The translations under genes were made by a program, and so were the position numbers. Of a stretch of 56,350 nucleotides of DNA, positions 3,877 through 56,350 are shown in pieces. Under the pieces are notes generated by a model. That model saw only the letters and a list, made by a program, of their open reading frames with translations. It was not told the origin of the DNA and searched no databases. The stretch comes from Psammoneis japonica. Its lineage: Eukaryota. Each line of letters opens with the position of its first letter. Within the stretch, counting starts at the first letter, position 1. Location: the NCBI GenBank assembly GCA_008632985.1, contig QPGO01000064.1, positions 372,001 to 428,350 of the forward strand, given 5' to 3'.

Positions 3877-4109
3877 CGTAATCTTGACGCAATCCTTTGG
3901 TATACTTCTACAGGAGTCTACGTGATCTGATTTCTGCCACGTAAGACGAACGTCGCGCAGTCAACTTGCTGGTGTCAGGCTGACGTTGACGATCGATGTT
4001 GAATTTTGAAAATTCGGACCCTCACTTTTTTCTCTCGCACTCATTGTTGTTGCGTTGCGCTCCACCTATCACCATTTTCTTTATCTTAGCATCCCTATCC
4101 TATCTTACC

Positions 4110-6939: not shown

Positions 6940-8826
6940 CAACCAAATGTTTTGGGCAAGCCAAGTTCAAGGCCAAGTCTCAAGCTGGCACATCTGAAAG
7001 ACAGGCATCCCCAAGAGAGGCTCTGTGCTTTCATTCCGCCAGCAGCTCCGCCAGGAGCAAGGAGCTGTGAAACAATGAAGAAAAGGCTGTGGCAGCATGG
7101 TGTCCACTGCAGCACAAGCTCTGCCAGCACATGTCCTCAAGGAGCTGTCAACAACAAGGGGGCTTCTGAGAGAGGAAAGGGCACAGCAGCACACAGCCCT
7201 GTGCTCTCTGCACACACGAAGAGCGACAAGTCAGCAAGCGCTGTAACAGAGACTCCACCTCTTGTCAGAAAAGTGGGGCAACAACTTCATCTGCCAAGCT
7301 TCACACACAAGCAGCACTGTCATTGCAAAAGAAAGCAACCAATGAAAGATGGCAGCCAGGACAAAAGCCAGCAGGACAAAAGCCTCTGCTGTTGCCAGTG
7401 CTGGTGGTCTTTGGCATGGAGAGACTCTGTTTTAGCTCATGAGCTCAGTGGAGAAAACACACCAGCGTTGCACACAGCTGCACCAAAATGACTGCCACTT
7501 TCTGCCTTGGCAAAAATGGCTGTCAACTTCTTTCTGGCTGGCCACATGGCAGTGAGACCTTCCAACCTGCCAAAGTCTGATGTGGGCCTGTTGCCTGGGT
7601 TTTGATCCTTTCCCAGTCTTCACCCTAAATTGTCCCAAGGACAGAAAAATGTGCACCTTTTTTTTTTTGGGCATGTTGCCATTTTGACACTCAAGCACTG
7701 GGTGGACAGTCTTGCAGAATGTGGTTCTCAAAGAGGCAGCATGTCACCTGCCAAAGAAAAAAAACATCATGCCCTTGCCAAAGACCACTTGCTCAAATGA
7801 AAAGAATGAAGACTGCGTCCATCTTGTTGCCCACACATGCCCAATGAAGATGTTGTTGAGTGAAAATTTGGAACTCAGCCACCACCTCATTGGCCCTTGC
7901 AGTGCTTCCAGCACTTTGTCCCAAACAGCTTCATGTCCAAAGCTTTGGTTCACAACATCCTCTCAACAAAGCTCGCGATGAAGACAAGCACAAGATTTGC
8001 AAAAATTTCTCCACCAACAGTGTTGTGTCTTCTTCTCCTTCCCATCCAAGGACACCTTCCAAGTGAAAGGTCAAAAAATCTTTGCACATTTTGTGGCTTG
8101 TGCAAGTGCATTGTCAGCAAAATTCTTTGAAGTTGGGTGGGCCGCAGGACCAACCTAAATTCATTTTGAACATGAACAAGATGGGCCAAAAGTCAGCAAC
8201 AATTTGGGAATTCCTGGTGGACCCCAAGGCCTTGCTGGCCATCATTCTTCCACCTGAAGAGGAAAAGACAAGCTCTAAACTCAAGAAAGACAACAAGATT
8301 TGCTGCTGGTTTGAGGGTGGCCTCATTCTCAATGTCAACTGGAAAGCCCAAGAGTGCAAAACTTTTCTGGCCGAACAGTTGTGGACACCAGAGCCTCCCC
8401 TGTCCTTCAGCATTAAGCCCAGTTCTCCTGCCCTTTGCAATGTTGAAGGCCATGTCACCTTGGTCACACAGTCACCAGACAAAGCTGCCACCAGCAGCAC
8501 TGCATCTGCAGGGACAACCAAGCCTCTCATGATGAATCCTCACCCGCAACATCATTGCCCACCAAGTCCACACCACAGCTCCTGTTTGAAACTTGCCACT
8601 TAAAACTGCCAAAGGCTCAGCATTGTTTGCAATTCAGTTTGCACCAATGCATTCATGAAACCAACAGCATTCTCCCTTTTATAATCACCACCATGCTGCA
8701 GATCCTTTGCAGCATGGACCTCTTCAGCAAGAAAACGAAGAAGAATCGGGCACCACCAAAGGATCAAACTTGGACTCTGGTGGGGACCACAAAACACATT
8801 CCCATTGTCATTCATGAGACATGAGC
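6940..8826. other. TpA-depleted block 2
   Basis: About 9 residual TA, all in TTA/TAA context. Abrupt edges. Confidence 0.85.
6990..7372 (-). pseudogene. 3' fragment of a duplicate MBOAT/LPCAT gene, TpA-erased
   Basis: 7081-7132 aligns to 15649-15700, ~7250-7310 to ~15790-15850 and 7341-7370 to 15873-15902. 6990-7015 resembles the 3' flank at 15488-15513. Confidence 0.9.
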
Positions 8827-15087: not shown

Positions 15088-15186
15088 CGGCTTCACCGAA
15101 CATTGTTTGCGAACCAGAGTAATTGTTGCAAGGAAGATCTAAACCGAGCAAACGATACCCATCTTTCGCGGTGGTTGCCGTTGGAA

Positions 15187-15443
15187 TCCCAAGAGAAAGG
15201 AAAAGACGTGCCGAATCCTACCAAAGGGTAGGCAGAGCATTGCGATGCCGAGAGGAAAACATGCCGACAGCATATAACCGAGAGTGTCGACATCAATCAC
15301 GATGGCATCAGACAGATTTGTGCGTGCCCCCTGACAAATTAGGGAACAAGAACAACAGTTGGAGCCACCTACTTCTCGAGAGAGTAAATGTACTCAAGGG
15401 TCTGATACGCAACAGTTGCAGGAAGAAACTGCGCATGACTCAA
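15187..15443 (-). pseudogene. 5' fragment of a duplicate MBOAT/LPCAT gene
   Basis: Aligns to ~16838-17102 (ccaagagaaaggaaaagac...gggaacaagaacaacagttggagccac...ggaagaaact...catgactcaa) with indels. Confidence 0.92.
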
Positions 15444-15592: not shown

Positions 15593-17095
15593 CTAGTCCT
15601 TCTTCTGAACAGTTTCAATAGGAGTAGGGAGCAGTGCAACGATGATGTAAAAGGCTACGGCAGCAAGGTGTCCACAGTAGTACAAGCTCTGCCAGCACAT
15701 CAAGGAACGATCGAGGGCTAAGAGCGAAAAGGGCAGAATCGTGTACTCTAAGCACCGAAGAGTGACAAATCGACAAATATTGTCGTAGAGACTCCACATC
15801 TTGTCAGAAAAGCGGGGTGACAACTTTTTCCTGCCAAGCCTTTCACACATGGTAAATAGTGTTGTTGTAAGGAACGAAAGATAGTAGCCAGGATAAAAGC
15901 CATGCCAAAAAGCACTCATACTGTAGACTGCAACAAGACTTCCATCGAAGCGAATGTATACGTAACGAGTAAGCCATTGTGCGGTTTTCTTGTTCCAGTT
16001 CTTTGACATGCTCGTGACGTTTGAAGCAGTTTCAAAATTGACAATATCCATATTGTTGGAGTTCTCCCAGCCAATCGCATTGCCGTCCGCATCAAATCCT
16101 TCAAACCCGGCGTACCATATGTTGTTTGCACCCTCTGCATTCTTCCAGCCAAAGTAATACTTTGTACGCCAAGCAATAAGGGTCATGTAGAGGTACGCCA
16201 GACGAATGTACATGGGTCTTGATTGAAATTCCGAGGTCAAAATGACTGGAGTGTTGCTTTGTGGGTCGACCGGATCCAGCAAGGGAAACATGGCACCAAG
16301 ACCAACATAGAGTGCCATGTTTAAAAGAGAAACGAGCAAAGGCCTCAATGTTGGCCACACATTGCTTGGAGGCTCGCCCCGTTTCTTCCCATCGGGCGTG
16401 TAATAGAGACTTCCATCGCATATGCTACAGTACGTGCTAAACTCCCAGGAAGGACCGCACAAGATTGTTGAAAAACAAAACGTGTACCCGAGATACTCAA
16501 CAATACCAGGAACCTTTCGAAGAGCCCACTTGGCACATTTTTTTGTGGCTCGATTGCCTCCACCAGATGCGAGTACATGCCCATCATAGATATTGTACGC
16601 CAACATGTAGAGTTTTTGTGTCAAGATCATTTGGGTTGCCGTAAAGTCCAAATCATATGCGAGATAGTTTGTGTATTGACGGTAAAGGTGACCAAGTGTC
16701 AGGTAAACGAAAGCAAAAGTTGGGACAGCCGTTTTCAGGGTTGTTGGATGAAGCACCAGACACATTGCGTATACAACAAGCGAAGAGATCAGCTGATGAA
16801 TCCATCCAACATCCAAAGTAAATTGAAGAACAAAGACTCCCAAGAGAAAGGAAAAGACATGCCGAATCTTTCCAAAGGGAAGACAGAGCATTACGAGCCC
16901 GAGAGGATAGCACAGAAACATGCCGAGCGCATAACTGAGAATCTCGACATCAATCCCGACGGCATCCGACAGATCTTGTACGTGGCCCCTGACAAATTCG
17001 GGAACAAGAACAACAGTTGGAGCCACATACTTCTCGAGAGAGTAAATGTAGTCAAGGGTCTGATTCAAAACAGTTGTAGGAAGAAACTCGCTCAT
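15593..17095 (-). CDS. MBOAT lysophospholipid acyltransferase (LPCAT/Ale1-like)
   Basis: 500 aa multi-TM protein. QMILTQK, KYYFGW, WNKKTAQWLTRYVY, SAFWHGFYPGYYLSF. Confidence 0.95.
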   Translation of the reverse strand: MSEFLPTTVLNQTLDYIYSLEKYVAPTVVLVPEFVRGHVQDLSDAVGIDVEILSYALGMFLCYPLGLVMLCLPFGKIRHVFSFLLGVFVLQFTLDVGWIHQLISSLVVYAMCLVLHPTTLKTAVPTFAFVYLTLGHLYRQYTNYLAYDLDFTATQMILTQKLYMLAYNIYDGHVLASGGGNRATKKCAKWALRKVPGIVEYLGYTFCFSTILCGPSWEFSTYCSICDGSLYYTPDGKKRGEPPSNVWPTLRPLLVSLLNMALYVGLGAMFPLLDPVDPQSNTPVILTSEFQSRPMYIRLAYLYMTLIAWRTKYYFGWKNAEGANNIWYAGFEGFDADGNAIGWENSNNMDIVNFETASNVTSMSKNWNKKTAQWLTRYVYIRFDGSLVAVYSMSAFWHGFYPGYYLSFLTTTLFTMCERLGRKKLSPRFSDKMWSLYDNICRFVTLRCLEYTILPFSLLALDRSLMCWQSLYYCGHLAAVAFYIIVALLPTPIETVQKKD

Positions 17096-17648
17096 GACTC
17101 AAAGTTGTTTCAAAACTATCATTCCGCCATGTGCACAAAGAAGAATTCTGTTCTCTGTTCAAGTCTAAGACACCGCAATTATCATGGTTGTCAGTCCCGA
17201 ACCCGATGACACCGAACTCCCCACACGACCCATCTTGGTCGTTTCTCGCGGTAGTACGTTGCCGCCATCGACGGTGATCCGTGATCACTCGAGAACCATG
17301 GCGGAGTTCTGACAGCACCACGCACAACATCGCAACTCCCGTCCAACCGTTGAAAAGAAGCGCGGGAAAACTCGCAATCACTATCACTAAAATTGTATAA
17401 TTTTAATCTTTTTTATTGATAGTGACGTTGAATTTTCATTTTTGGAATTGACGTCATTCGGTTGGTCGCCGATTTTCACGAGCCTCCGTAGAATTGTACG
17501 AGAGCCGCAACGTCACCGTGAAGCCACCAACGTCAGCCTTTCTCCAAAACTCCCGCTCCTCCCTCCAACACTCATCGCACGGCATGTTTCAACACAACAT
17601 CATAATCTGTTGTTCAGGGTGATTAAAACGCTGGCAACTCTTTTGACA

Positions 17649-36644: not shown

Positions 36645-37810
36645 CCAACACTGCATCCACCTGGTTGGAGATTTGGGAAGAATGAAAGAGGTGGCCACCA
36701 TGAGGCAGCCCAGAAGAATGAACTGAAAGGAAGAAAAAGAAAAGAGAGAGAGGGAAAAGAAGGAAAGATGAGAAAAAGAGAAGGTGTTGCCAGTTGCCAG
36801 GTCATCATTTTGTGGTCCTTGGCTTGGCTTGTCTGCAAAGAAGCTTGTCAGTGACTCGAGGTGCCAGCACAGCCCGGATGCCACAGTCTTGAGTGGCAGA
36901 CAAGATGGGGGCTCTGTGTCTGTGCCCTGCTGTGGTTTGGGTGGACTGTTTCTTGCAGCCTGTCTCATTGTGACATTCCACCCTCTTGTTGCTGCAGCGC
37001 CAAGGACAGCAGGGGGCTTTGACACCCCACGGCTCTTTGCCCTCATTCAGGAGAGGACCTGTCAAACATGTTGGGAAACATGGAAAGCTCCTGAGTTCCT
37101 GATGGGACTTCAAATTCTTCATTGCAGCTGCACACCACTTCAAATTTTGGGCAAGAGCACCCAATGCGATGGGGCCAGCTGACTTGGCAAGACCTGGCTG
37201 TGTCTCTGTGGTGGTGCTTCTTAGCTCTCGTGTCTCTGGCCTTGAAACATGTGGTGTAAAGCACCCTGAGGAAAGTGCTTGCACACAGCATGCTGGCCCA
37301 ATCCTCTCCCATCAGCCAGTGCCTTGTGGCGCAGTGCTCAGCTTGCTGGCTCCTCCTGATTGTGAGCTCCCTGGTGGTTTGGTGTCTCAAGTGTTCTTTT
37401 CTGTTTGTGTGACAGATGTGTGCTTGGGATCATTGCAGTCTCATGGGATGCTGTGTCTTGTCTCAAGCTCTGTGCTGGATGCAGCACTTTCTAGAGTGTG
37501 TGCCATCAGGAGCATCGCCCTCATCATTCTTGCTGCTTGTCAGAGTTGGGAATGCCCAGCGCCACATGGGACAGGGGAGGAGATTGTGTGGAGGGCAGAA
37601 AGGAATCAAAGGCTGTGAAAAAAGAGATTGCATGAGATGTTACAGCTCAGTGTTTGGGTGGCCCACTGAGAGGGAGAAGAGCAGTGGTGGGTGCTGCCAA
37701 AGCAGTCACTTGCCAGGGTGCTCCAAATGAAGTCGGCGGAAAGGGAAGCAGGGGAGGTGAGGGCATGAAGAAAGGCAGAGTGGGAAGTGTCGGAGTTGTG
37801 GGGGTGGAGG
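36645..37810. other. TpA-depleted block 3 (intergenic island)
   Basis: About 4 TA in 1.2 kb between two normal genes. Confidence 0.8.
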
Positions 37811-40403: not shown

Positions 40404-43400
40404 CTATGCAGAGGCACGAGTTACTCGGCGAACACCGCGTCCGCCCGTGAGAAACTGTGGTAGACTATTCGAAACATCCTCCACTCCCTTGGATTTTCGC
40501 AAGAAGACAGGTGCCAACATTTTAACTGTGTTGCTGCCGCCCTCCACCTGTGAATCGGGAGAAACTTTCCTTACGGATTGGTTTGTGTTGCTACCATCTT
40601 CCGTTGAGGGAACGACCTCATCGTGGATGTCTGAATCCCGCGACGCCTCCTTCGAGGCTTCGTCCTCAGATTTCTCTGTCGTATGAGTATAAGACTTCGG
40701 GGCGGCCTTTCGAAGTGGAGTACATCTGATTCTCTTTGTGGCGGGAGCCTCTTCGCCGATGTCATCTGCTCCATTCATAGCGCCCCTTGTTCCCTTCCCA
40801 GCAGATGCACCATTGGCATGGTTACCAGCCGCCAGCACTTCACTAGAGAAGTTTTCGCTTGACGGCACGCTAACGCCCGTCTCGTCAAGAGACTTGGTTA
40901 CTTTAACGCGAGGACTTGTTCTCGTCATGGAATCTGTCGGGATGGGCTCTTCCTCACCCAATACGAAGGCAGCATCGATATTTCGTTCTCGTCCGCCGAG
41001 AACGTACGACACGGCATAAACGATTGTGCCGTTGTCCCGACGGTCAACGTGCTTAACCCTGCCTACTCCTCCAGGCTTGTTAATTCCAGGCCAGGTACGA
41101 GACTGAACTTCTACAACATCACCCACAACGAAGGGGCCCTGCTTTCTGCGGGTTTGCGGCGCATTGACAACACCACGTGGGTTCACATCACCATTGACCG
41201 ACGCGATTCTCTGCGGTGTCAAAGGCAAACGCTGTCGCTTTTGGGGTGGAGAACTGGTTTCTTGAACAACTTTTCGGGGGCGCCCACGTTTACGCTTCTG
41301 TGGATTCGCCGCTTCGTTCTGAAACGATTTCATACAACTCGACGGACGTGCCTTACGAGGCTTTCCGAGAGGCCAACCCCTTTTCTTTTTCAAAGGTTTT
41401 CCGACTGACACATCAGGTGGAGGAGCCGCGAGTTTGGTTTCACCTACGTCTGCATCTGCCTCTGCAACGATGGGCGAAGGTTTGACTTTCGGGGGGCGTC
41501 CTCTCTTTCGCTTGGGTGCAGGTAGCGGTTGGAGAGATTTTCCCAGTGGAAGACTGGGAGGAGCGGCGAGTCTGGCTACATCACTTTCCGGTTTGACTTT
41601 CGGGGGGCGTCCTCTCTTTCGCTTGAGTGCAGGTAGCGGTTGGATAGTTTCTCCTGGTGGAAGACTGATAGGAGCTGCGAGTCTGGCTCTATCACTTTCC
41701 GGTTTGACTTTAGGAGGGCGTCCTCGCTTTCGTTTGGGCGCATGTAGAGGTTGCGGAGCAGCGGAGAAAGCAGTAGCGTTGGTAGCGATTCGAGGCCTTC
41801 CGCGCCCCCTCTTAACAGCGGGAGCCACACTCAATCCCTGCAAGTGCGCCAGAACGTCCGCGCTTTCAAGGGAAGGGTCGTATCCCGCGCCACTCGTTTC
41901 GGGGATATCCCACTGCTCTTGATCAGCATCGACCGTACGTTTCATACTTCGAGCCTTCACTATTTCACAGAAACTGGATGATACATCCAATTCTTTACCC
42001 TCGGCTTCATCCACCAACATCCAAATCGGCCGTCCCTCAGCCTGGGGTTTGTCAGGGCCCCAGAGGCCAACGCGGCGCATCGGCGCGAGATGGCACCACT
42101 GCAAATCGGGTATATAGGTAAGCACATAATAGTAATCAAACAACTCCGATGCCGGGGTGCTATTGTAGTTGACAAGCTTGACCACCTTGTTGAAGAGACC
42201 ACCTTGAGATACGGAAGAGTCACTGAGGTCTGGATAAGCCTCGCGATACACAGCAAGTTCCACTTCATAAGCCGTCTTGGCCTTTTGGTATGCCTCTCGC
42301 TCCTTGAGGTGCATCGCTTGATATTTCTGCTTATATCGTTCGTCGAGTTCCTGCCACTGCCGCGAAAGCACCTTGGTCAGCTCCGGCAACGGCTTTCCAG
42401 CCATTGTTTCCTTGAAGAGGTGTCGATGATCTCGACAGAACAGCAAGTACCCGGATAGCGGTCGTTTCGGGCGGACCGGGGCAGTAACTACAGCCCTTGA
42501 CGCTGCAGCCGTTGATGGGGCGGCGGCAGAATTGGACACCTTGCTCCCATTCATCGTTGCCGGTGTTGTCTGATAGGTGGAGTCCTTTGGTGGCTCATAC
42601 TTTTCCTGAATGGAAACCGCAAGCGACTCTTCTACGGGTTTTCGCAATTTGGCTCTCGCCGCTTTCTTACGATTCAATTTCAAGGCCATCATGTAGCTTG
42701 GCTCGCTTGTTTCGAGAGTATCGGTAGGAAAAGTCCAGTGGCAATAGGGCTGATAAGCATCGTCGCTCACATGAAAATGAGACACCTTGATTCGTGTGCC
42801 GTCTTTGAGCCTTGAGTTTGATTGCAATTCCGGAAAACGTGCGCGGTTTCCAGCAATAACATCTTGCCAAGATACTTGAAACATTTTTGCAATCTTGCGT
42901 GGGGTGTCGTTTTCCTTGGCAATATACCAGGTGGGAGTATCGCCGTCGCAGTCATTCTTGCGCTTGGCTTGTTTGGTGGGAATAAAGAGCGAAGTACCCT
43001 TGATAAGGCGGCTTCTTGGAGCAATATCAGGATACACGTATTGATTCAAAAAGATAATGTCCCACACATCGCAGTGAAACCGTTTTGCAAGATCCACAGG
43101 ATGCTCACCCTGTTTCTGCGTAACGTATGTGGTGACATCACTAGAAACCACTTCAGGTAACGGATCTTCCTTTTTCTCCTCGTCCTCTTCGTCTTGACGG
43201 CGCATTCTCTTCTCAAAGTCTAAATCTTCGGTAATACATCCGACCTTACGAACCCAAGTGACTCGTAAAACGGCACGGAATTGTCTGTAGCTTGCAAAAC
43301 AACATAGTCATAGTTTCTAGACCCAGTTGAATTCATGCGTTCGAGTTTTTCAATAACTAAGGAGACCAAGGTCTGACAAAGACAACGGTATAAATGAGAT

Positions 43401-44018
43401 CACATAGCGCGAACGGGCCAAGGCATGCAATTCTGTGTCGCTCACCTTGCCACACCCCAACCCTCCTAGAAGCGATATTTCCGCAATGCGTGGCCACACA
43501 ATACCCTCATTCCAGGGGTCTCCGCATCTCACAGTAGCTTGCATCGCTTCTGCCAGTGACCCGTCTGAATCATACGCACGTTCCTGATTAGCCATCTGCG
43601 CTGCTAGCGTTGGCTCGTCAAAGCTGAAGGCTGAATCATGAAGCGAGTCAAAGCAAAAGCTCTTCTGCCAATTGGTAAACGTGGTTACAGTGATGAATCC
43701 CTGTAAACGATCGTTATGCCTGACTAAGTACCCGAACAGCGGATCGTCCACGTCTATCCGATCTGCCATGTACTCGAGTGAAAGAGGCTTAGCGGCCGTA
43801 AATTTGTCCTTCTTGCGCTTTTCTGCTCCTCTACGAACTGCTTCTTTGCATAGCAGCACCATTTCAGCCATACTTTCAAACAAATGGTCGCGGTCAGTCA
43901 CTTCAGAAATTACAGAGCCCTTCAAATCGCTCTGACATTTCGGCACAGTTCGAAAGTCATAAGCCGGCTGACGCAACGGCTTGGCTGCAAACCGCTTGGC
44001 ATTCAACTCCTTCGTCAT
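40404..44018 (-). CDS. Chromatin protein: GNAT-like + 2 LysM-like + HMG box + AT-hooks
   Basis: AEISLLGGLGCGK|TLV...YDYVVLQATDNSVPFYESLGFVRVG (intron ~43370-43445). ENDTPRKIAKMF (LysM-like). PKRPLSGYLLFCRD...W (HMG). About 6 RGRP motifs. Confidence 0.85.
41478..41745 (-). repeat. 111-bp coding tandem repeat carrying AT-hooks (~2.4 units)
   Basis: KRKRGRPPKVKP recurs every 37 aa. Confidence 0.9.
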
Positions 44019-46384
44019 GACTACAACAACATAAACCAGTGCAACAAGGCGCAGACTTGTTTCCAATGCTCTTTGGTTGCCGTCGAAATCACAACGTCAC
44101 CGCTGCAAAAGAGTGGGGCATGTTTGCAGCGAATTTCGCCAATCACTCGCGAGCCACGCTGCGTTTATTGACTATGAACACCGTAAGGTTATATTTCGAT
44201 TCGAATCATCCACACTTTCATTCACCCTTAAGTAAATGTCCGTTGAAGATTTGTGTATATAGTAGTTTTATAAAAATATATAAAGTTATTTATGGCATCA
44301 CGGAGTGGCGCGCCATCGTGCGTTGCGGTTTTGATTTGCTTTTGTCTGAACATCACAGATCAAGCAGCAGCGCTCTGAACGAGACAAGCACATGATGCCC
44401 CGACCCCGACCCCCGACCCAGACGATGCATTGCGCAAGATCACATGGTGCATTGCAGGCAAACAAACAGACTCCTTCTGCATCTGCAGGGGTGCTGGAAC
44501 ATCAGAGCGTGTGCTGCAGCAGTGATCGGGGGGGGCCGTGCCTTTCTCACGCAATGGTTTTTGGATGCGTGCTCCAGACGCAGGTGAGCCGGATGAAAAA
44601 CGGACCTTGTTGTCACGAGGTTTGACTCAAGAAAATTGCAATTCATTGTTTTTTCAGGCAAAATGCATCTGTGTGCCTGTGCAGGAATGCACTGGCGGCT
44701 GACAAGCTCCAAAAGCAAGTTGCCAAAAAGCTTCGCCCTGGCCACAACGACAACGAAGTGCGGCACACAGCTTCCGCTTGTTCAGCCATCCATGATGATG
44801 TCATGGTCAACCAACCCCAACAGTCAACAACAACGGAAGCACCAGGCATCTGTGTGGTGCCACAGGGGAGGCACCCTGTGATGGTTGGTTGTTGAGCCAC
44901 ACCCCAAGAGACACAACTCAGGGCAAAGTTGTTTCCTCGGGGGTTGGGCCAAGATGAGTGGAGAGCTTTTCAATGTGTTCTTGTGGCAAACTCATGCTTG
45001 AAATCAGCCATCAGAGCTTCATTTCCCAGTGATGAAAATCTTGCAGAAGTGCGCAGAACAATTGTTTTTGTCAGACTCAACAAGAAGAAAAAACTTCATC
45101 TTAGAATCACCCTTTGTTTCGGCCATTTGCACTGTTGGAAAGAGCTTTTTCTCCACATTTCAGTCATGTGTTTGTTGCAAAAAGTTGAAAAAATGCATTG
45201 AGGCAATCACAGAACAAAGGTGTGAAGGCACAACCATTTGATTTTTGGCAAAGATTTCACATGCTCGTGGCTGGTTGACAACAAGCCCACAACCCCCACA
45301 CAACCCAAATCAGTGAATGACTTTGAGCCAAAGCAAGCTGAAGAATGGCCAACAAAATCCCCCAATTGAAATTTCTGCTTCAGCACAAAGACAGCCAAAT
45401 GGCTAATTCCCCCCAATTGAAGTTTCCACTTTGGCACAAAGAAAGCCAAATGGCCAACGTTGCAGAGTTTTTGGGCACAAGCAAAATCAAGTTGGCAAAA
45501 CAGCCAGGATGTCAAACATGAAATCACCACTCCATTTCTGCGCCAGCCAGGCAACTGCTGCAGCATTCAGATGCTCACTTCAAAGTGTCAATCGGTCTTC
45601 TCTCTCTTTGCTTTCAATGCTTGTGACAATTTTTCAGATCTCTGCATGGGCACATCCAAAATGTGCAATGCACACCCTTTGCAGCATGGACAAATGAGCC
45701 CATCTGGAATTTGCAGTCTCCTTTCAATCCACATGAGCACATGCCAAAAACTTGTGGACAGAACAAAAGGCCCTTGAGCACACAAAATGAGAAGAGAGCA
45801 GATGGCACCAAACTTGTTTTGAACCTTGGGCTCTCAAGTGGCATCGTTTTGCTGCTCTGCAGCTGGCTGGAAGCTTGAGTGTTTTTTTTTTGTGACTTGC
45901 AGCTTGAGGCTTGCTGGCACATGAGCGTGCGCAATGTTGCCTTTAGAGCCTGCTGCTTGCTGGAGCTGAGGAGATGTGGACAGCTGTCTGGGTGCCCAGG
46001 CTTTGTCCATCAGATGCTCAAACTCGCGGTTGTTTTCTCTTTTGTGCTGTGGCCACTTGGCTTCTTCCATCAAGAAAGTCCACAGCAGCCCAGGCCATCC
46101 TGAGCACTGACAAAGCAGCTCATGCAAAACTTTTCTGCCTGTTTTCCTCCCCCCCCCCCACAGAGCGGTTCTTGGCAACAGCGCCCCCTGCACACCAAGC
46201 TGCCATGGGTGGGGACGCCGCAGAAATCACGCAGGTGCCATTTTTTTAGCAAAATCGCCCTCTCTGCCCAAATGGACCATGGCGGTCGTCGACGTCGTGA
46301 CAAAAAAAAAGTGTCATCATCACGATTCACAAGACTCAACGTGCGGTCACAACGCGCAAGGCCGGGCTTCCAACTCCCGCCACA

Positions 46385-46780
46385 GACGCGTTCCAGACGT
46401 AGGTGGGAATCCGTGTGACATTGGGCCCGTAGACTTCTACGTGCGAGCTCCGTAGTAAAATTATACGGTAATTAAAATGTCAATGATCGCCAACAGAAAA
46501 TGAGGCAATTTTGCGAACGCACAAACTCGCACATGATTGAAGTACATCATTTTTTACTTAGCCAGTTACATTCTTCAGACATTGAAGAATGTAACTGGCG
46601 CATTATTGTTTCTATAAATTTGTTATATAAAACGTCTGGGGCTTCGCAAAACAGCGAGTCTGGACAATTTTTTTTAAATATCACACGTAGAAATCTACGT
46701 ACGAAACATACGACGGATGATAAAAATTATTGTTGTCACACGTCAGCACTACGAGCTCCCACCTAGGGCTGGAACGCGTC
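46385..46780 (+). mobile_element. MITE copy A (24-bp TIR, 4-bp TSD CACA)
   Basis: caca|gacgcgttccagacgtaggtggga ... tcccacctagggctggaacgcgtc|caca. Confidence 0.92.
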
Positions 46781-47439
46781 CACAACGTTCGCCAAGCGAC
46801 CACCAAGTCAACCTGCCGTTTCTCACCAAATCGCTTTCGCACCCTCAGAATCACTGTTTCAGACAGCCCCTTTGAAGTGTTGCATCCGCCATCATCTCAT
46901 TGGGTGGAATGCTGTGAGGGGCCATCTCGAACAACAACATGGTTGAGATGTTAAAAACAATGTCGACACCTGACCAACAAACATGCCGTTTTGCACCATG
47001 TCGCTTTCGCACACTCAGGATCAACGTGAAAAGATGTGCATTTGATGCCATCATGTCCACAGTCATCGAATCAGGCGAGGGGCTCCGAGTTGCAATTTTT
47101 GGCAGCAGTTTCATCAAGCAATTTTGAAATGTCTGCGCATGACCTCATGTCTCGTCTGAACATCACACCGTCATCCAAATGGCACCTTCACGAGAAACAG
47201 TTTCATTGCACGCTGGAAACAAAGACCACAGAGACTCAATCTATCAGCAAACAACTTGCTGTCATGATGGAAGCTCTGAGAAAAGGATTTTTGGGCTCTT
47301 GGACTCTGAGATGTTGAGAGCGATCCATCCCGAGTTCACGACAAGCAACAAGCATTCCAACACTGCGTTTTTGGCCATGTCAACAGGAAGAGCGCCACCC
47401 AAGAGAGGCATGTTGTGGAGAGCAATGGGTGGTTGGACA

Positions 47440-48490
47440 TGGTTGGAGAAACACGGTGCTGCAGCAGCAGTCGTGGCAGACGCGTTCCAGGTCTAGGTGG
47501 GACCTCGTACTGCTGAACTGTGACATCGACAGTTTTTTGAGTCTCGTCGTATGTCGCGCACGTAGATTTCTACGTGATTTTTTCGACATTTTGTGTCATT
47601 TTACGGTGCACTTGTTGAGCGATCCGTCCAACAACTTTTGACATTTTTTGTTGCAGCGCGATTCTACAATGTCCTTAAGAATCGCGCAGGGCAGGCGAAG
47701 TTGCAAAAACGTCGAGTGGCAAGAGGCACAATTGTGCCACAAACTTGGCCGTTTATTTGATGTTGAAGACAAATGTGTCCATTAATTAAATTCTCGTACT
47801 ACGGAGCTCGCACGTAGAATTCCATGGGCCCAATGTCACAAGGAGTCCCACCTGGGGCTGGAATGCGTCGGCATTTGATGAACAAGGACAAGCAGCGGCC
47901 GAGGAGGACAAGGTTTGGACATGCAAGCGCTGGCACGACATTCACAAAGTGGGTGCAGACATTGTGTGTGATCCCAATGCATTGGCAATTGGCGCCGGCA
48001 TGGAGGAACACGCCAGCTGCAAGTCGACTTCATTGACGCAACAAAGACCATCAAGGAACGGTGTCCGCACGCAAAGGTCATCGGTGGCAGTTTGAACCTT
48101 TTGTTTGGATTCCGAGGAGCAATGAAAATCCGCGAATCAATTCATGCGGTGTTCTTGAATGATGCAATCCTTGAATCTGGAATGGATTTTGGTGTCATGA
48201 ACGCGAAGGAAATGCTTGCTGTCAATGAATTGGACGACGACACCAGGGTGCCATGCGAGAATCTCGTGCTCAACAAGACCGAGGATGAGACAGACGAGAT
48301 GCCAAAGCAAACAGAGCACAAAAGAGCATGCATTGATGCCAGAAAGAAGGGCTTGCCTCTGCCTTGGAAGCCCCATGGCAAACCTGCAAACAAGCCATGC
48401 CTTGCACTCTCTTGTGACAAAGTCATCTCCAAACCTGCCATCGAACCGCCTCTGCCGATGCCAACATCAGAAGCTGCAAAGAATCATGTC
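47440..48490 (+). pseudogene. METH: B12-dependent methionine synthase fragment (pterin-binding domain)
   Basis: KHGAAAAVVA[MITE]FDEQGQAAAEEDKVWTCKR...DPNALAIGAGMEEH...VDFIDATKTIKERCPHAKVIGGSLNLLFGFRGAMKIRESIHAVFL...SGMDFGVMNA. Confidence 0.9.
47479..47869 (-). mobile_element. MITE copy B (TSD GGCA), inserted in the METH pseudogene
   Basis: ggca|gacgcgttccaggtctaggtggga ... tcccacctggggctggaatgcgtc|ggca. Confidence 0.92.
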
Positions 48491-48589
48491 CTGAACAGAC
48501 AAGTGGAAAGAACAAAATGGCAGAGCTCATTGTGCTTTGAAATGAGAACTTGGTTCCACTGTGAAATGGGCGTGCATTGGCACTCGACG

Positions 48590-49030
48590 GATTTTTACAC
48601 GGTGAAGTGCGGCAAAAGAGAGAAAGATGCTGTTGATCATTCTGCAACTGGAGAGACAGCTGAAGTGGTGGATGCATTGTCAGAGACGTGATTGATTCTG
48701 CTTTTGATGTTGGTCACTTTTGGTGTCATGATGGCCGCAGTGTCACTCCAAAACTGCAAACGAGACATCAAGGATTTTCAGTCGTGATTGCACGGTGAAG
48801 CATGGCAAAAGCAACAAAAGCGCTGTTTCACGTTCTTTCCAACTGCGGAGTCAGGTGACTTGGTGGATGCATTGTCAGAGACGCGAGAGCCTCTGCTTTT
48901 GATGTTGGCCAGCACTGGCATGACAAAAGTTGCAGCAACACTCCAAAGCTGCAAACGAGCAACGGCAGGATTTTCGAAAAATCGAAATGTTTTCAGTCGT
49001 GATTGCACGGCAAAGCACGGGAAAATGGTG
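48590..49030. repeat. Degenerate ~195-bp tandem repeat (~2.2 units)
   Basis: cacggtgaag...tggtggatgcattgtcagagacg...ctgcttttgatgttgg...ctgcaaacgag recurs. Confidence 0.75.
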
Positions 49031-49199
49031 GTCACTTCATCGATCTCGTTGACGACAAATGCAAGGCAAATGAAAAAGTTGCCCCCCACTTTAAGACCAC
49101 CGCAACACCCTCCATCGACTGAGGTGACTCTCGTTTCGATCCAAGAAAATTCGTCTCTGCATGATTTCTGCAGCGTCCCCTCCCACAGCTGCAGCCAAG

Positions 49200-49598
49200 G
49201 ACGCGCTCCAGCCCTGGGTGGGACTCCGTGTGACATTGGGCCCGCAGAATTCTACGTGTGAGCTCCGCAGCACGAGAATTTAATCAATGGATGTGTTTGT
49301 CTTCAACATCAAATGAACGGCCAAGTTTGTGGTGCAATTGTGCCTCTTGCCACTCAACGTTTTTGCAACTTCGCCTGCCCTGTGCGATTCTTAAGACATT
49401 GTAGAATCGCGCTGCAACAAAAAATGTCAAAAGTTGTTGGACGGGATCCGCTCAACAAGTGCACCGTAAAATGACACAAAATGTCAAAAAAATCACGTAG
49501 AAATCTGCGTGCGCGACATACGACGAGACTCAAAAAACTGTCGATGTCACAGTTCAGTGGTGTGAGGGCGGTCCCACCTGGCAGACCTGGAACGCGTC
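49200..49598 (+). mobile_element. MITE copy C (TSD CAAG), close inverted relative of copy B
   Basis: caag|gacgcgctccagccctgggtggga ... tcccacctggcagacctggaacgcgtc|caag. Confidence 0.92.
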
Positions 49599-50264
49599 CA
49601 AGACTGTTTGCTGAGCTGCCAGCTGAGATGTCAAACTTGAGGTTGTGAGCTCCCAGAGCTGCAAGTCACAGGGCAGAGCATGTTTCTGGAACTGGCAGCA
49701 CAATGCAGAGCCCTTCCTCAGCTTTCCGGGGTGCGCCCAGACCTCCAGAACACTGGCTGGCCTGTCCCAGCTCCAGGTGATCTGCTTTTCATTGTGCTGG
49801 ATTGTCTGCACAGCCAGTTTTCAGCGCCAGACATTTTTGTCTCCACCCGGCAGAGCTCGCACTTTTTGGCTTTTTGTGAACATCAATTGTTTCGATGATG
49901 CAATGCACTCATGATGTCAATGCTCATCTGCAACAACTGAGGTGTGTGTTGCGATGCAGGAAGAATCGTGTCAGTTGGCATTCAATGTTTTTCTGGCAAT
50001 GTGTGGAACAATGCTGCTGACTTCTGTGAACATGTGCCATCCACCCAACACCACCCAACACACGCACCAACTGTGACGCAGCAGGCCCACACCACTGCTG
50101 TCGCCACTCCACAACCCCCTCTTTGCCCTTGTGGTCACATGGAACCGTCTGCTCCTTTTGTTTCAAAGGTGTGACATTGTCGCCACAATGCGGTTGCGGC
50201 TCTAAAGAGTTGCTGTGTCATTGCGGACAATGCCATCTCTTCACATTCTCTTGTTTTGAACTCG

Positions 50265-52300
50265 GCAAGGTCCTTGAAAGAACTGTTTGTTTTCCTTCCT
50301 TGAAACAACGTGTTTGATTCCTTGAAAAGACATGTTTGTTTTCCTTAAAATGACGTGTTTGTTTTCCATGAAACAACATGATTGTTTTCCTTGAAACGAC
50401 GTGTTTGTCATGTTTGTTTTCCTTGAAAAGACGTGTTTGTTTTCCTTCCTTGAAACAACATGATTGTTTTCCTTGAAACAACATGTTTGTTTTCCTTGAA
50501 AAAACGTGTTTGTTTTCCTTGAAAAGACATGTTTGTTTTCTTTGCAATTTGAGTGGACATGTTTGTTTTCCTTGAAAGAACTTGTTTGTTTTCCTTCCTT
50601 GAAACAACACATTTGTTTTCCTTAAAAAGACATGTTTGTTCTCCTTGAAACGACATGTTTGTTTTCCTTGAAAAGACGTGTTTGTTTTCCTTGAAAAGAC
50701 ACGCTTGTTTTCCTTGAAAAAACATGTTTGTTTCCATTGAAACCACTTGTTTGTTTTCCTTGAAAGAACATGTTTGTTTTCCTTGAAACAACCTGGTTGT
50801 TTTCCTTGAAATGACGTGTTTGTTCATCTTGAAACAATGTGTTTGTTTTCCTTGAAATGACTTGTTTGTTTTCCTTGAAACAACATGTTTGTTTTCCTTC
50901 CTTGAAAAGGAAATGTTTGTTTTCCTTGAAACGACATGTTTGTTTTCCATCAAATGACATGTTTGTTTTCCTTGAAATGACATGTTTGTTTTCCTTGAAA
51001 CAACATGATTGTTTTCCTTGAAACAACATGTTTGTTGTCCTTGAAAGCACTTGTTTGTTTTCCTTCCTTGAAATGACACATTTCATTTTCTTTGAAAAGA
51101 CATGTTTGTTTTCCTTGAAACGACATGTTTGTTTTCCTTGAAAGAACATGTTTGTTTTCCTTGAAACAACATGGTTGCTTTCCTTGAAATGACGTGTTTG
51201 TTCATCTTGAAACAATGTGTTTGTTTTCCTTGAAATGACTTGTTTGTTTTCCTTGAAACAACATGTTTGTTTTCCTTCCTTGAAAAGGAAATGTTTGTTT
51301 TCCTTGAAACGACATGTTTGTTTTCCATCAAATGACATGTTTGTTTTCCTTGAAATGACATGTTTGTTTTCCTTGAAACAACATGATTGTTTTCCTTGAA
51401 ACAACATGTTTGTTGTCCTTGAAAGCACTTGTTTGTTTTCCTTCCTTGAAATGACACATTTCATTTTCTTTGAAAAGACATGTTTGTTTTCCTTGAAACG
51501 ACATGTTTGTTTTCCTTGAAAGAACATGTTTGTTTTTCCTTGAAATGACGTGTTTGTTTTCCTTGAAAGAACATGTTTGTTTTCCTTGAAACAGCTTGTT
51601 TGTTTTCCTTGAAACGACATGTTTGTTTTCTTTGAAACAACATGTTTGTTTTCCCTGAAACAACATGTTTGTTTTCCTTGAAGAGACATGTTTGTTTTCC
51701 TTGCAATTTAAAAAGACATGTTTGTTTTCCTTGAAAGAACTTGTTTGTTTTCCTTCCTTGAAACAACACGTTTGTTTTCCTTGAAAAGACGTGTTTGTTT
51801 TCCTTGAAATGACGTGTTTGTTTTCCTTGAAATGACGTGTTTGTTTTCCTTCAAACAACATGTTTGTTTTCCTTGCAATTTAAAAAGACATGTTCGTTTT
51901 CCTTGAAAGAACTTGTTTGTTTTCCTTGAAACAACATGTTTGTTTCACTTGAAACAACATGTTTGTTTTCCTTGAAATGACATGTTTGTTTTCCTTGAAA
52001 AGACATGTTTCTTTTCCTTGAAACAATGTGTTTGTTTTTCTTGAAACAACATGTTTGTTTTCTTTGAAACAACATGTTTGTTTTCCCTGAAACAACATGT
52101 TTGTTTTCCTTGAAGAGAATGTTTGTTTTCCTTGAAAAGATATGTTTGTTTTCCATGAAACTGCTTCATTGTTTTCCTTGAAACCACTTGTTTGTTTTTC
52201 TTGAAAGAACCTGTTTGCTTTCCTTGAAAAGTCACGCTTGCTTTCCTTGAAAAGACATGTTTGCTTTCCTTGAAAAGACATGTTTGTTTTCCTTGAAAAG
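50265..52300 (-). repeat. 23-bp satellite array with a 378-bp higher-order duplication
   Basis: Unit tgtttgttttccttgaaa+(caaca/cgaca/tgaca/agaca/gaaca). Identical ORFs at 50839 and 51217 are offset by 378 bp. Confidence 0.95.
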
Positions 52301-52311
52301 AAAAAAAAACC

Positions 52312-53520
52312 GTGCCCATGCACAGATTGCCACTGCAAAGTGCGCCAGATGGGGTTGTCACACTTTTGACCAGTGCGCTCAACGCCATCAGATGGCTCAA
52401 ACGACTTGTCCTGGCTCAATGAGCCGGTGGCCAAGACAAAGAAGGTCTCTGACTTTCTCAAGGGTGTCTCCGACCCTGGGTTGGAGACTGGTGAGAGTGC
52501 AGTGGACGGAGATCCAACAAAGCCAGCAGATTTCAAAGCATGCCAGCAGCATGTGAAGACTCTGGCAGAGAATGCCAAGAACCGCAATGCTGGTGCTCAC
52601 GGAGTCACATCCGTCCAATGCTGCAACAACCGGCACAGAAACCCTGGTGGCAAGCACCAACCTAAAAAGGACAAGCCCAGGATCTGGGCAGGCCATTGCC
52701 CCATTGAAGAGTGGAGTGCTCTTGGCCGTCCTGAGCAAGAGCAAGTTGAGAAGCTCCACAAGGCCAAGAAAGCCGAGAAGAAACACAAAGCCTCAGCTGC
52801 ATCCTCGGAGGCTGAGTCAGTCAATGCCGACACTCGTGCTGTGAAAAAGGTGGCTGTTGCCAAGCCTCAACCTGCTGATGAACAAAAGGACTCCAAAGAG
52901 TCAGGTGGGCTGCCTGCTGCCAATGCAGGCACGCAGTTTAGACGCAGTGCACATGAGAAACCTCAGAAGGAGGAGTGAACAGTTGCGCCAGCACCAAAAG
53001 GCATGGAACCAACTGTTGCTGCACCTGCTGGCACTGTGCATTCATCCAGGCGATTCCCAACAGACACACGTGTCTCTTTGTCATCTGCTGGACATTCAGA
53101 TGGTGAAGCAACCAACAACTTGGACTCGCACGCTGATGCATGTGCTGTTGGGTCCAATTTTGTCATGTGCTCTGATGTCGACTGCACTGTTGCAGCACAT
53201 CCTTGCTCCAAAGAGTGCGCGCCAATGAGGAATGTTCCCATTTGCATGACTGCTGCCATGTGGGTTGATCAAACCAATGGACAGCCACACCTGCTGCCAG
53301 TCCATGAGGCTGTGTTTTTTGGGGACAGAATGACTGACACCCTGCTGTCCACGACACCCCTCGCCAGTTTGATCCCAACAGCACACACTCTGTTGTTTTC
53401 CTTGACTCAAAAATCTGGGTGCCTTTGCACATGCGAGGTGTTGCTTTGGTCTTTGACCCACATGATCCAACTCAGAAGGATCTGGAGAACCTCCCCCGGC
53501 TGGAACTCGCATCACCCCTC
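52312..53520 (+). mobile_element. Decayed Ty1/copia (CoDi-like) gag-protease remnant
   Basis: EPVAKTKKVSDFLKGVSDP...DFKACQQHVKTL. LDSHADACAVGSN...VPI...HEAVFFGDRMTDTLL. Confidence 0.8.
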
Positions 53521-53529
53521 ACTGTGCTT

Positions 53530-55110
53530 TGAAGTGGGGATGCTTGCGCAACCGCTGGAAAGACATTGTCAACGTGATGATCTTTAAAGAACCAGGGAAC
53601 AACAAAGTCCATCGACTGCAGGTCACAAACATGTGTGAAGCAGACCATCAAATCATCACGAGTGTGAAATGGCAAGAATTGGCACAGCAAATGGAGCACC
53701 ACTGGATGTGCAATCCCGGCATTTGTGGATGCCGCTCATTCCTTTCTGCCCAGACTCCTGTGTTTCTTGAGAACTTGACATCAGAAATGTCGTGAGCTTC
53801 TCGAAAGACAGCGCCAATGAGTGATGATGATTGTGCCTCTTGCTTTGACAGAAACATTCCCGTGCTGGTCGGACTTTGCTCTTGGAGAACAGCGTGCACT
53901 CACAAGTTGTTGAAGTTGACATGGGCACTCTGTGTCATGCCAGGCACTGGCTGCAAACCCTGCTGGGCTCAATTCAGCTGAGTTGTTCCCACACAGAAGA
54001 TTTGCCTCTGTGCGGCACAGGGCAAGGTGGTGGAAATTCCCCATGGCATTGGAACACCCTCTGCAACCGTCTTTTTGACATTTTTGATGCCAGAGCGATT
54101 GGAGCTCATTTTGAAACCCCTGACGGCCAATTTTACATCCGAGTCTTTAACCGAGGATGCGCAGATGATGCGTCCAAACAAGCCAATGACTGCCGAGCAA
54201 GTCCTCTGCCTTCGGCGTTTGATCTGTCCTTTTCTTTGCAACAGGAGAGTCAACTCCCAAGTCCCACTCTGGCACTCAACTCTCAGACTCAGTTGAAGAA
54301 ACTCCAACACAAGAGTGACACTGGCTGCAGCTCTTTTCCTTTGATCTTGTCCACTTGATCATGCGGGAACATGGAGATGCTGCTGTGCATGTCATCTCTC
54401 CTCAATGACCTGTGTTCTCCCTGACTCAACCTTTCTCCCTGAAGAGTTGCTCACCACTCAACAGAAAGCAATGCGGGTCACATTTGCCAAATGTGGGTGC
54501 AACTGAAGCACAAAAAAACTCATCTTGTGTGGTCCACAAGCTCTTGGCAGCAATGGTTTTTGATCGCCAGACATCAAACAAGGAGTTGCTCAATTGCAAA
54601 TGCTGCTCAAGCATTCCAGAGGTGTCACACATCTTCATCTGGGAGAGGATCAACCCCACAAATTGCTGCACATTGCAGTCTCATGGATCTAGCTGAACTT
54701 GGGGACAGGCGTGAGCTTCTTGTGGGGTGCAGATGCTGTTCTCCCGCACATGGAATCATGTTGGTTTGCATCCGTTTGTGCGTTCTTGCACGGGATTCAA
54801 GGGAAAGTTTGCCTGACACACTCTGGAGTCCTCCCTCTCCAATGAGACAACAACCAGCACATCATGGATGCTGCACTCCAGCCCCAACTCTTTTCTCAGC
54901 GTGAGGTCCAATGGACCAATTGTTGTTTGCATCTGCAGGTGTTGTCCTTGTCTGATGTTGCTCTGGCAGATGACTTGACATTGGATGCTGCAAAGATGGC
55001 AGGAGATCCTTTGCTCCAGAGTGGTGCCAGAACTATGAACAACATTGAGCAGCAGAAACCAGAGACAAGAGCCTGGGCAGCGTGGAGAAAAGTTCTGCGC
55101 TTTCTTGTGA
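53530..55110 (+). mobile_element. Decayed non-LTR retrotransposon RT remnant (Ambal-like)
   Basis: RWKDIVNVMIFKEPGNNKVHRL..EAD, DDDCASCFDR, GTGQGGGNSP, GCADD, NCCLHLQVLSLSD, WAAWRKVL. Confidence 0.85.
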
Positions 55111-55690
55111 TGTCATTTCAAGGAAAACAAACATGTTGTTTCAAGGAAAACAAACGTGTTGTTTCATGGAAAACAAACGTGTTGTTTCAAGGAAAACAAA
55201 CATGTCATTTCAAGGAAAACAAACATGTCATTTCAAGGAAAACAAACATGTTGTTTCAAGGAAAACAAATGTGTTGTTTCGCGGAAAACAAACGTGTTGT
55301 TTCACAGAAAACAAACATGCCATTTCAAGAAAAACAAACATGTCATTTCAAGGAAAAAAACATGTCATTTCAAGGAAACAAACGTGTCATTTCAAGGAAG
55401 GAAAACAAACAAGTTCTTTCAAGGAAAACAAAGATGTCTTTGTGACGAAAACAAACATGTCTTTTCAAGGAAAACAAACATGTTGTTTTGAAGGAAAACA
55501 AATGAGTTCTTGCAAGGAAAACAAACAAGTTGTTGCAAACAAAAGAAACAAGTTGTTGCAAGGAAAACAAACATGTCTTTTCAAGGAAAACAAACATGTT
55601 GTTTCAAGGAAAACAAACATGTTGTTTCACGGAAAACAAACAAGTTGTTGCAAGGAAAACAAACATGTCGCTTCAAGGAAAACAAACATG
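55110..55690 (+). repeat. Second array of the same 23-bp satellite, inverted orientation
   Basis: Unit tttcaaggaaaacaaacatgttg. Confidence 0.95.
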
Positions 55691-55799
55691 CAAAAAAGAA
55701 AAAAGAGAAAATCTGTTGGCAGCGCTGCCAGCGAAACATGTTGTTCACAAACACATGCCTCTGACACAAAGAACACTTTTCCACGATGCTGTGTTGCTG

Positions 55800-56350
55800 A
55801 GATTGGCACCATGTTGTGCTTGCAGCCTGCTCTTGGTTTGCTTGGAGAGAGAAGGCAGATGCAATGTTCCCAACAAATGTGCTGAGGATGGCTTTGCTTT
55901 TGGAATTTGGTTGGACAACCAATGGCCACAAAACACAAGCTCGGCAAGCTCAACATTGAAAAAGAAGAAAAAGTTGAGGAGGCTGGTGTTGAGTGGCTCA
56001 TGTGGGAAAATCAATTGGGCACAATGCCCTCTCTTCTCAAGCAACTCACAAAATGGGAGGGACTTTGTAACATGCCAAGGGGCCACAAAGAGGATGGGGA
56101 GAACCTTGGAAAATGGTCAAGTGACCAATGGGATGCCACAAGGAAAAGGAAACTTGATGCTTCTCAACAGGAATGACTGAAGAAGGCCAGAGCCAAGTGG
56201 GACATTCTTGCTGAGCATCGGGAGACTGTGTTTTCTCTTCTCAAACAGTTTGTGGTGCATGAGGGAAGCTGCAAAGTGCCCCATTGTCACACTGAAAATG
56301 GAGAGAGACTTGGACATTGGCTGGACATGCAAAAGCAAGCATGGAAGGCT
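55800..56350 (+). pseudogene. Helicase-associated (HA) domain repeat gene, decayed, runs off the window
   Basis: EREGRCNVP...GIWLDNQ; WEGLCNMPRGHKEDGENLGKWSSDQ; HEGSCKVP...GERLGHWLDMQ. Frameshift and stop codon. Confidence 0.85.

Follow-up and report, generated by a model that had tools for sequence, protein, structure and literature searches.

The window analysed here, a stretch of 56,350 nt from the diatom Psammoneis japonica (GCA_008632985.1, contig QPGO01000064.1, positions 372,001–428,350 of the forward strand), alternates between ordinary gene-bearing DNA, with open reading frames (ORFs) for a kinase, an MBOAT protein, an O-methyltransferase, a GST and an HMG-box protein, and blocks of DNA from which the dinucleotide TA has almost disappeared. 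We called these blocks with a two-state hidden Markov model (HMM) run on the occurrence of TA, taking base composition as the expectation, and profiled dinucleotides in 500-base windows. The six TA-poor HMM segments together hold 47 TA where 1273 are expected. In the 500-base profile the blocks show TA at 0.00–0.10 of expectation and CA and TG each at 1.5–2.1 times expectation, compared with TA at about 0.4–0.9 in the intervening genes; taken as a whole, the normal parts of the window stand at 0.61 of expectation for TA, and the TA-poor DNA at 1.63 times expectation for CA and 1.77 times for TG. These values bear out the initial annotation of this DNA, made from the letters alone, which had described four sharply bounded blocks nearly devoid of TA and rich in CA and TG.

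The segment coordinates also lie close to those first proposed. Block 1 spans positions 2–3874 (TA 7 against 268 expected, CG 44 against 215), block 2 spans 6938–8679 (TA 7 against 113, CG 12 against 102), and block 3, which is intergenic, spans 36652–37805 (TA 4 against 64, CG 12 against 77). The fourth block, put at 44296–56350 in the initial annotation, proved not to be continuous: it is interrupted by TA-normal islands at 46385–46780 (30 TA) and 47476–47872 (14 TA) and by a half-converted copy at 49200–49598 (7 TA), all three of which are miniature inverted-repeat transposable elements (MITEs) of about 396 bp. The parts before and between the first two islands are 44293–46384 (HMM segment 44293–46392, TA 4 against 132 and CG 61 against 130), the first portion of which has single-copy depth in sequencing run X1, and 46781–47475 (HMM segment 46770–47492, TA 2 against 46); the remainder is the HMM segment 47820–56342 (TA 23 against 650, CG 208 against 427). 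Edges are abrupt. At the left edge of block 4, 11 TA fall within 44250–44299 and are followed by 810 bases without any, and on the left side of block 3 the TA and CG boundaries lie within about 50 bases of each other. A search for terminal repeats bordering blocks 2 and 3 found none. CG is depleted unevenly: blocks 1–3 retain 0.12–0.20 of the expected number, and the last about 0.5.

The dinucleotides that are missing are matched by those in excess. Between normal and TA-poor DNA the frequency of TA falls from 0.0413 to 0.0027 and that of CG from 0.0567 to 0.0217, while CA + TG rises from 0.1417 to 0.2122, so that the summed losses (0.0386 for TA and 0.0350 for CG) match the gain of 0.0705, and the share of pyrimidine–purine steps is unaltered (0.2397 in normal and 0.2366 in TA-poor DNA). 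CA and TG gain nearly equally (+0.038 and +0.033). Simulated on the window's normal DNA, a conversion of 96% of its TA and 65% of its CG gives CA at 1.75 and TG at 1.74 of expectation, compared with the observed 1.63 and 1.77.

The recognisable content of the blocks is the debris of mobile elements, satellite DNA and gene fragments, along with the MITEs. As the stop codons TAA and TAG are gone from the blocks, many long spurious ORFs occur in them; only TGA ends a frame, one such ORF inside the satellite reaches 361 aa, and weak false Pfam matches arise from them (e.g., ‘Grass antifreeze beta roll’). Immediately after the second MITE copy begins a fragment of a methionine synthase (MetH) pseudogene on the plus strand (47871–48505, 635 bases, with a frameshift near 48018–48022), 53–64% identical by blastp to MetH proteins carrying PF02574 and PF00809, some of them from named diatoms. 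It is followed downstream by a plus-strand array of a 23-bp satellite at 50271–52300 (79.9 copies by Tandem Repeats Finder (TRF), 32% GC, TA-free), a Ty1/copia-type gag and protease remnant on the plus strand at 52302–53523, mapped by tblastn, further TA-poor DNA at 53524–55109, and a second, inverted satellite array on the minus strand at 55110–55690 (24.9 copies by TRF, about 80–84% identical to the first). The satellite arrays flanking the copia remnant could be pericentromeric DNA; low-GC tracts mark centromeres in Phaeodactylum. At the end of the window lie plus-strand remnants of helicase-associated (HA) domains at 55886–56350 (PF03457, E 2.6e-8 for 56177–56350 and 1.7e-4 for 55886–56173), which continue past it. 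The other blocks yielded less: none of the 50 ORFs of at least 50 aa in block 1 had a Pfam match at E ≤ 0.01. When the blocks were searched by tblastn with proteins encoded in the window, the only match was a weak MBOAT-like fragment on the minus strand of block 2 (about 7084–7341; 37% identity over 91 aa with the window's own MBOAT ORF, E 9e-5).

The initial annotation had held that everything recognisable in the blocks is dead, and had listed a long interspersed nuclear element (LINE) among the contents and read the peptide ‘SCFDR’ (53838–53852, in the TA-poor DNA 3' of the copia remnant) as part of a reverse transcriptase. Contrary to the first statement, the MITEs inside the blocks are young and TA-normal. 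The other two claims were not confirmed. Across 242 block ORFs of at least 50 aa, Pfam gave HA domains and weak low-complexity matches only, with no reverse transcriptase, integrase, LINE or endonuclease domain. The ORF at 52979–53584 in the copia remnant has 410 relatives at E ≤ 1e-3, and RVT_2 was present in 2 of the 15 relatives tested, both of 1359 aa; tblastn with 12 long copia-type relatives, including these two full-length proteins with RVT_2, found no integrase or reverse transcriptase beyond the gag and protease region at E ≤ 0.1.

The pseudogenes allow us to ask at the level of codons what has been lost. For the MetH fragment we compared the columns conserved at ≥70% in 24 homologues (n = 156); 115 are unchanged and 41 differ. 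Of the differing columns, 9 fit TA becoming CA or TG and 8 fit CG becoming TG or CA, so that 17 of the 38 single-step differences fit the loss of one of these two dinucleotides; transversions make up 12, transitions of other kinds 9, and 3 columns need more than one step. All four conserved tyrosine columns have changed, three to histidine (CAC) and one to cysteine (TGT). In the protease domain of the copia remnant, the three columns that are tyrosine in most of 150 relatives now read TGC (Cys), CAC (His) and TTT (Phe), and none encodes tyrosine, so that 6 of 7 tyrosine columns in the two pseudogenes have become histidine or cysteine, as the initial annotation had noted for conserved tyrosines in general. 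These codons bear directly on the possibility that the blocks, as foreign DNA or DNA under selection, avoided TA from the outset. The relatives of the copia element are TA-normal: in 79 metagenome loci encoding them, TA never drops under 0.2 of expectation in any 1-kb window (minimum 0.33, whole-locus median 0.75), in a scan that demanded an intact protein motif and so favours intact elements, and the relatives' proteins contain 3.2% tyrosine, with 1 of 150 free of it. The same trait is shared, moreover, by unrelated kinds of sequence. We regard native avoidance of TA as close to negligible, and natively TA-free elements, which the initial annotation had named as grounds for refutation, did not turn up among these copia relatives.

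Differences among repeat copies point the same way. The three MITEs of block 4 form a graded series. Copy 1 (46385–46780, 396 bp, with a 24-nt terminal inverted repeat that is 92% complementary) has 30 TA and 26 CG and is TA-normal; copy 2 (plus strand, 47476–47872, 397 bp, with a 28-nt terminal inverted repeat) has 14 TA and is lightly converted; copy 3 (minus strand, 49200–49598), inverted relative to copy 2 and 91% identical to 47479–47869, has 7 TA and is about half converted. This series of 30, 14 and 7 TA could serve as a clock for the TpA process. Between copies 2 and 3 there are 31 substitutions, 30 of which are transitions, and the dinucleotide differences include 7 in which one copy has CA and the other TG, 5 of TA against CA or TG, and 4 of CG against CA or TG. 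The CA/TG doubles make sense if the ancestor had a single TA or CG at such a place, which then became TG in one MITE and CA in its counterpart. From these counts we estimate roughly, by hand, that TA sites changed some 50–100 times more often than others. In run X1, other copies of the family have TA at 47687, 47736, 47770, 47775 and 47777, where copy 2 has CA or TG; at 47736, 47775 and 47777 the X1 contigs read TA, copy 2 TG and copy 3 CA, and at 47736 TA makes up the majority of the summed depth. The 23-bp satellite offers a parallel case: in the 53 monomers of exactly 23 bases, of 87 split from the array, the step at positions 7–8 is CA in 19, TG in 12 and CG in 4.

Variants between run X1 and the window form a further line of evidence. 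There are 149 in all, with 124 transitions and 24 transversions among all the variant places; among the 40 listed with their dinucleotide classes, the window has CA or TG in 12 cases where TA stands elsewhere and in 8 where CG stands elsewhere, 4 run in the reverse direction at CG, and 16 are of other kinds. Dinucleotide balance, codons, copy differences and X1 copies agree, and the TA-poor state is the product of mutation and not native composition. As the initial annotation had proposed, TpA has been turned regionally into CpA and TpG in repeat and junk DNA, whichever the strand: TA and CG have become CA or TG only within sharply bounded blocks, in each repeat copy independently, and on the two strands about equally.

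We then considered whether TA might be present in the cell and merely be sequenced as TG or CA, as an artefact or through a modified base. All DNA evidence comes from one sample, and X1, possibly the source of the assembly itself, is for that reason not independent confirmation. Word depth in X1 is one value per contig, with a single-copy level of 54.5. At this depth a 3316-base contig extends out of the gene and on through TA-free sequence (43300–44911), differing from the window at 5 places, and two further contigs cover 44882–46021 with 7 differences, giving depths of 54.5–59 and 12 differences over 43300–46021. Strand-dependent reading of a modified base would split the assembly graph at every former TA, and the unbroken graph across the border between gene and TA-free DNA argues against it. 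The frameshifts and transversions of the pseudogenes show real age, and in the same run other copies retain TA at the same sites. An artefact is in our judgement extremely improbable, and in the second check that had been suggested, on TA at these sites in sequencing data, X1 contigs at a word depth of about 55 reproduced the TA-free sequence. At 44296, the first former TA of block 4, the window has CA and a single-copy X1 contig has TA, a polymorphism or allele difference. Of the other runs, X2, though listed as ‘DNA?’, looks RNA-derived: it covers only 43300–44102, the gene part of the examined stretch, and its contig skips 43373–43445, 73 bases with GT..AG ends on the minus strand, which we therefore take to be an intron. 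Run X3 covers the MITEs only.

The MITE islands of block 4 (copies 1 and 2) have a summed X1 word depth near 1e5, compared with 54.5 for single-copy DNA, so the family may have very many copies. Empty sites for two of the MITE insertions are present in X1, where contigs join 46379 to 46780 across copy 1. It follows from the TA-normal state of these MITEs that repetitiveness by itself is no trigger, unless the process is rare or has stopped; indeed the highest-copy DNA, that of the MITEs, is the least affected, and DNA of single-copy depth at 44293–45147 is fully erased. Two readings are open: the MITEs inserted after the last episode, or something other than copy number acts as the trigger.

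Within the blocks the fate of a TA depends on its neighbours. Counting TA among all pyrimidine–purine steps by the flanking purine (R) or pyrimidine (Y), we found survivors in 0 of 822 steps flanked as R_Y, 3 of 951 as R_R, 8 of 908 as Y_Y and 24 of 852 as Y_R (YTAR against the rest, Fisher p 3e-8). Relative to normal DNA, TA survival by tetranucleotide is 0.48 for TTAG, 0.34 for CTAA, 0.32 for TTAA, 0.11 for TTAC and 0.07 for GTAA, and none survives of about 323 expected in GTAT, ATAC, GTAC, ATAG, ATAT, ATAA and GTAG. RTAY is thus fully erased, and TTAA, TTAG and CTAA are partly spared. The baseline is the window's normal DNA, which is mostly coding, and because TAA and TAG are under-represented there the spared fraction is probably somewhat overestimated. 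Survival agrees between reverse-complement tetranucleotides, and the pattern fits either a palindromic RTAY site or a target A, on whichever strand, that has a pyrimidine 3' of it.

The loss of TA is separable from CpG decay. Between 44300 and 44900 there are 29 CG and no TA, with CG hardly depleted, and in 48001–49000 CG stands at 0.72–0.76 of expectation and TA at 0.00–0.03. Flank dependence of CG survival is weak, unlike that of TA. Assuming exponential decay from the base-composition expectation, arithmetic on the segment counts makes TA decay about 2–5 times faster than CpG decay in the blocks. This ratio, together with the boundaries sharp to a few bases and the TA-normal MITEs within blocks, speaks against an untargeted bias in which late-replicating or compacted chromatin suffers error-prone copying or repair, for instance by DNA polymerase eta at WA (W, A or T), and TA simply decays faster. 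Such a bias would suit blocks that resemble heterochromatin in their dead repeats, CpG decay and intergenic position. Polymerase eta hot spots are WA, however, and AA is not depleted in the blocks but stands at 1.28 times expectation, compared with 1.14 outside them, so that mutagenesis of this type was rejected as a match. Overall we find an untargeted bias improbable.

A real, targeted mutational process specific to TpA is, on this evidence, very probable. In the account that we favour, and consider likely as a whole, silent repeat and junk DNA in the nuclear region would be hit after insertion, at the DNA level, the targets being transposon remnants, satellite, captured gene fragments and some DNA that is now unique. 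TpA would become TpG on one strand, read as CpA on the other, in a process run nearly to exhaustion, and a second, slower and separable process typical of 5-methylcytosine decay would turn CpG into TpG or CpA in the same blocks. Chemically, a tRNA-adenosine deaminase of ADAT2/TadA-like type, whose natural substrate would be an A preceded by U, may deaminate adenine in DNA and so leave hypoxanthine; an adenine deaminase is our leading guess for the enzyme, at somewhat less than an even chance. The role may be genome defence similar to the repeat-induced point mutation (RIP) of fungi, and the tempo would be episodic or slow, so that young MITE insertions are still TA-normal.

Several observations weigh against this account or blunt it. 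A runs test for strand-coordinated tracts of CA or TG gave no bulk signal beyond that of normal DNA; the order of products in MITE copy 3 gives a hint of such tracts (permutation p 0.05). The strand split of the products hangs on the split assumed for CG decay, and the regression used to obtain it was unstable because TA loss is equal in all blocks. Very-high-copy MITEs inside the blocks are TA-normal, the MetH fragment has undergone ordinary decay as well, as its 12 transversions and its 9 transitions of other kinds show, and editing that preceded integration would be another way to obtain boundaries sharp to within a few bases. Finally, because TpA is self-complementary, a T>C change and an A>G change on the opposite strand look alike, and the sequence is silent on whether A or T was altered.

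The last two points each lead to a different explanation. Were retroelement transcripts or double-stranded RNA edited from A to I by an ADAR-like enzyme and then reverse-transcribed, copies would arrive already TA-poor, which would account for the very sharp edges of the blocks and suit the copia-type remnant inside one of them. However, the change has also reached DNA of single-copy depth, the satellite and one copy of the MITE, which is a DNA transposon, and single elements, namely the MetH fragment and the copia remnant, contain both product types. ADAR enzymes favour a 3' G, yet TAG is among the spared contexts and TTAG survives best; to our knowledge these enzymes are confined to animals. 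Given both products per element, the affected satellite and MITE and the survival of TTAG, ADAR-type editing of retroelement RNA was set aside as a match, and we hold editing before integration to be highly improbable.

The main rival to adenine deamination keeps the same targeted TpA process and places the chemistry on thymine, and between these two the sequence leaves the chemistry unsettled. A dioxygenase of the TET/JBP type, or another enzyme, would mark T at TpA in silenced DNA, and the resulting 5-hydroxymethyl- or 5-formyl-uracil would pair with G and give T>C. The 5-hydroxymethyluracil of dinoflagellates is said to favour TpA, and 5-formyluracil mispairs with G. Total loss at RTAY, intermediate loss at half-sites and partial sparing of YTAR would also suit a dimeric reader of a palindrome. 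Against thymine chemistry stands the sole direct precedent, in the chlorarachniophyte Bigelowiella natans, for which adenine deamination is proposed, also without proof (Mettrop et al., bioRxiv 2026, 10.64898/2026.01.13.699255). We rate thymine modification as unlikely, though the most serious of the alternatives.

A more far-reaching reading we offer tentatively and regard as doubtful in its entirety. Diatoms, and perhaps the whole stramenopile–alveolate–rhizarian group with Bigelowiella, might possess a dedicated system that rewrites silenced or invading DNA at palindromic RTAY, a defence of RIP type with opposite polarity and a natural A:T-to-G:C editor of double-stranded DNA. In this reading the flank rule points to an editor that reads DNA, possibly as a dimer, rather than to a moonlighting tRNA deaminase.

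The gene-bearing DNA between the blocks provides the normal background for these comparisons. The window's MBOAT protein is 53–62% identical to its best 120 matches, and all the sources named to organism are diatoms, including Amphora, Seminavis, Fistulifera, Nitzschia, Pseudo-nitzschia and Cylindrotheca. Beside the MBOAT gene, a stretch of 260 bases (15184–15443 against 16835–17102) is 86% identical to the 5' part of the gene, a local partial duplication in TA-normal DNA. A 111-bp tandem repeat (41479–41753; 2.5 copies, 88% match) lies within a long ORF with HMG-box and LysM domains.

A natural process that changes A:T into G:C at one particular dinucleotide of chromosomal DNA is so far documented for a single alga, in a single preprint (10.64898/2026.01.13.699255). 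A saturated footprint in a diatom suggests that the process is widespread among ecologically dominant algae, and the enzyme could be sought in diatoms as a second lineage that is genetically tractable. Any candidate would have to fit action on both strands, fastest at RTAY and slowest at TTAA, TTAG and CTAA, as well as independence from CpG decay, edges of a few bases and the sparing of young MITEs. If found, a natural DNA adenine editor would be of interest for base editing. There is also a practical consequence, as homology tools fail on the mutated transposons and repeat annotation in such genomes is biased.

Comparison with known systems places the footprint more exactly. Like the RIP of ascomycete fungi, it is a transition hypermutation of repeated or foreign DNA that acts per copy, destroys coding capacity and is tied to one dinucleotide. 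Unlike RIP, which turns CpA into TpA, it runs in the opposite direction, as the initial annotation had stated: RIP is called at TpA/ApT above about 0.89 and (CpA+TpG)/(ApC+GpT) below about 1.03, and the TA-poor DNA gives 0.047 and 1.82. High-copy MITEs are spared here, again unlike RIP, and no link to a sexual cycle is known. Decay of 5-methylcytosine accounts for the part of the change that leads from CG to TG or CA, with CG at 0.12–0.5 of expectation in the blocks. It cannot remove TA, which is gone where CG is barely touched (44300–44900 and 48001–49000), and CG loss of this type differs from TA loss in its flank dependence. Because TA is lost more completely than CG and partly independently of it, 5-methylcytosine decay alone was rejected, in keeping with the earlier claim that the pattern goes beyond it. 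The ADAR and APOBEC enzymes of animals likewise hypermutate repeats or viruses by deamination with a preference for neighbouring bases, but ADAR edits RNA and APOBEC changes C in TC or CC, and neither erases genomic TpA on both strands.

The closest counterpart is that of B. natans, a rhizarian. According to the preprint (10.64898/2026.01.13.699255), two viral inserts took 231 of the 302 nuclear single-nucleotide mutations in mutation-accumulation lines; 230 of these 231 were A>G or T>C, all at TpA and at about 1000 times the background, and they arose in some lines only. The genome contains 124 clusters depleted in TpA and enriched in CpA + TpG, and an ADAT2 homologue is put forward as the candidate enzyme (10.64898/2026.01.13.699255). 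Full-text literature searches found this preprint and no report for diatoms, so that the initial annotation's view of an undescribed process stands for diatoms and has been overtaken, in 2026, by a chlorarachniophyte. As in B. natans, TpA changes to TpG or CpA on both strands, and the change is limited to foreign or silent DNA with neighbouring genes normal (TA 0.61 between the blocks here). The two cut-offs given in the preprint are passed by 17 of the 56 1-kb windows of our stretch, with runs at 1–4000 (4 windows) and 47001–56000 (9 windows). There are differences as well. The host here, being a diatom, belongs to the stramenopiles; the DNA hit consists of transposon remnants, satellite and gene fragments rather than viral inserts; and the erasure is nearly saturated, with TA at 0.03–0.06 of expectation compared with 0.45 in the giant-virus insert of B. 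natans. In B. natans a de novo rate was measured in lines, whereas here the process is known from its footprint in the sequence alone. A term search of the preprint's text (10.64898/2026.01.13.699255) did not return the words ‘diatom’, ‘CpG’ or ‘flanking’, whereas CpG depletion and dependence on flanking bases are visible here. Taken together, the footprint belongs to the kind described in the chlorarachniophyte and is new for diatoms as far as our searches show; what it adds is near-saturated erasure, the refractory contexts TTAA, TTAG and CTAA, a TA loss separable from CpG decay, and young high-copy MITEs that are still TA-normal.

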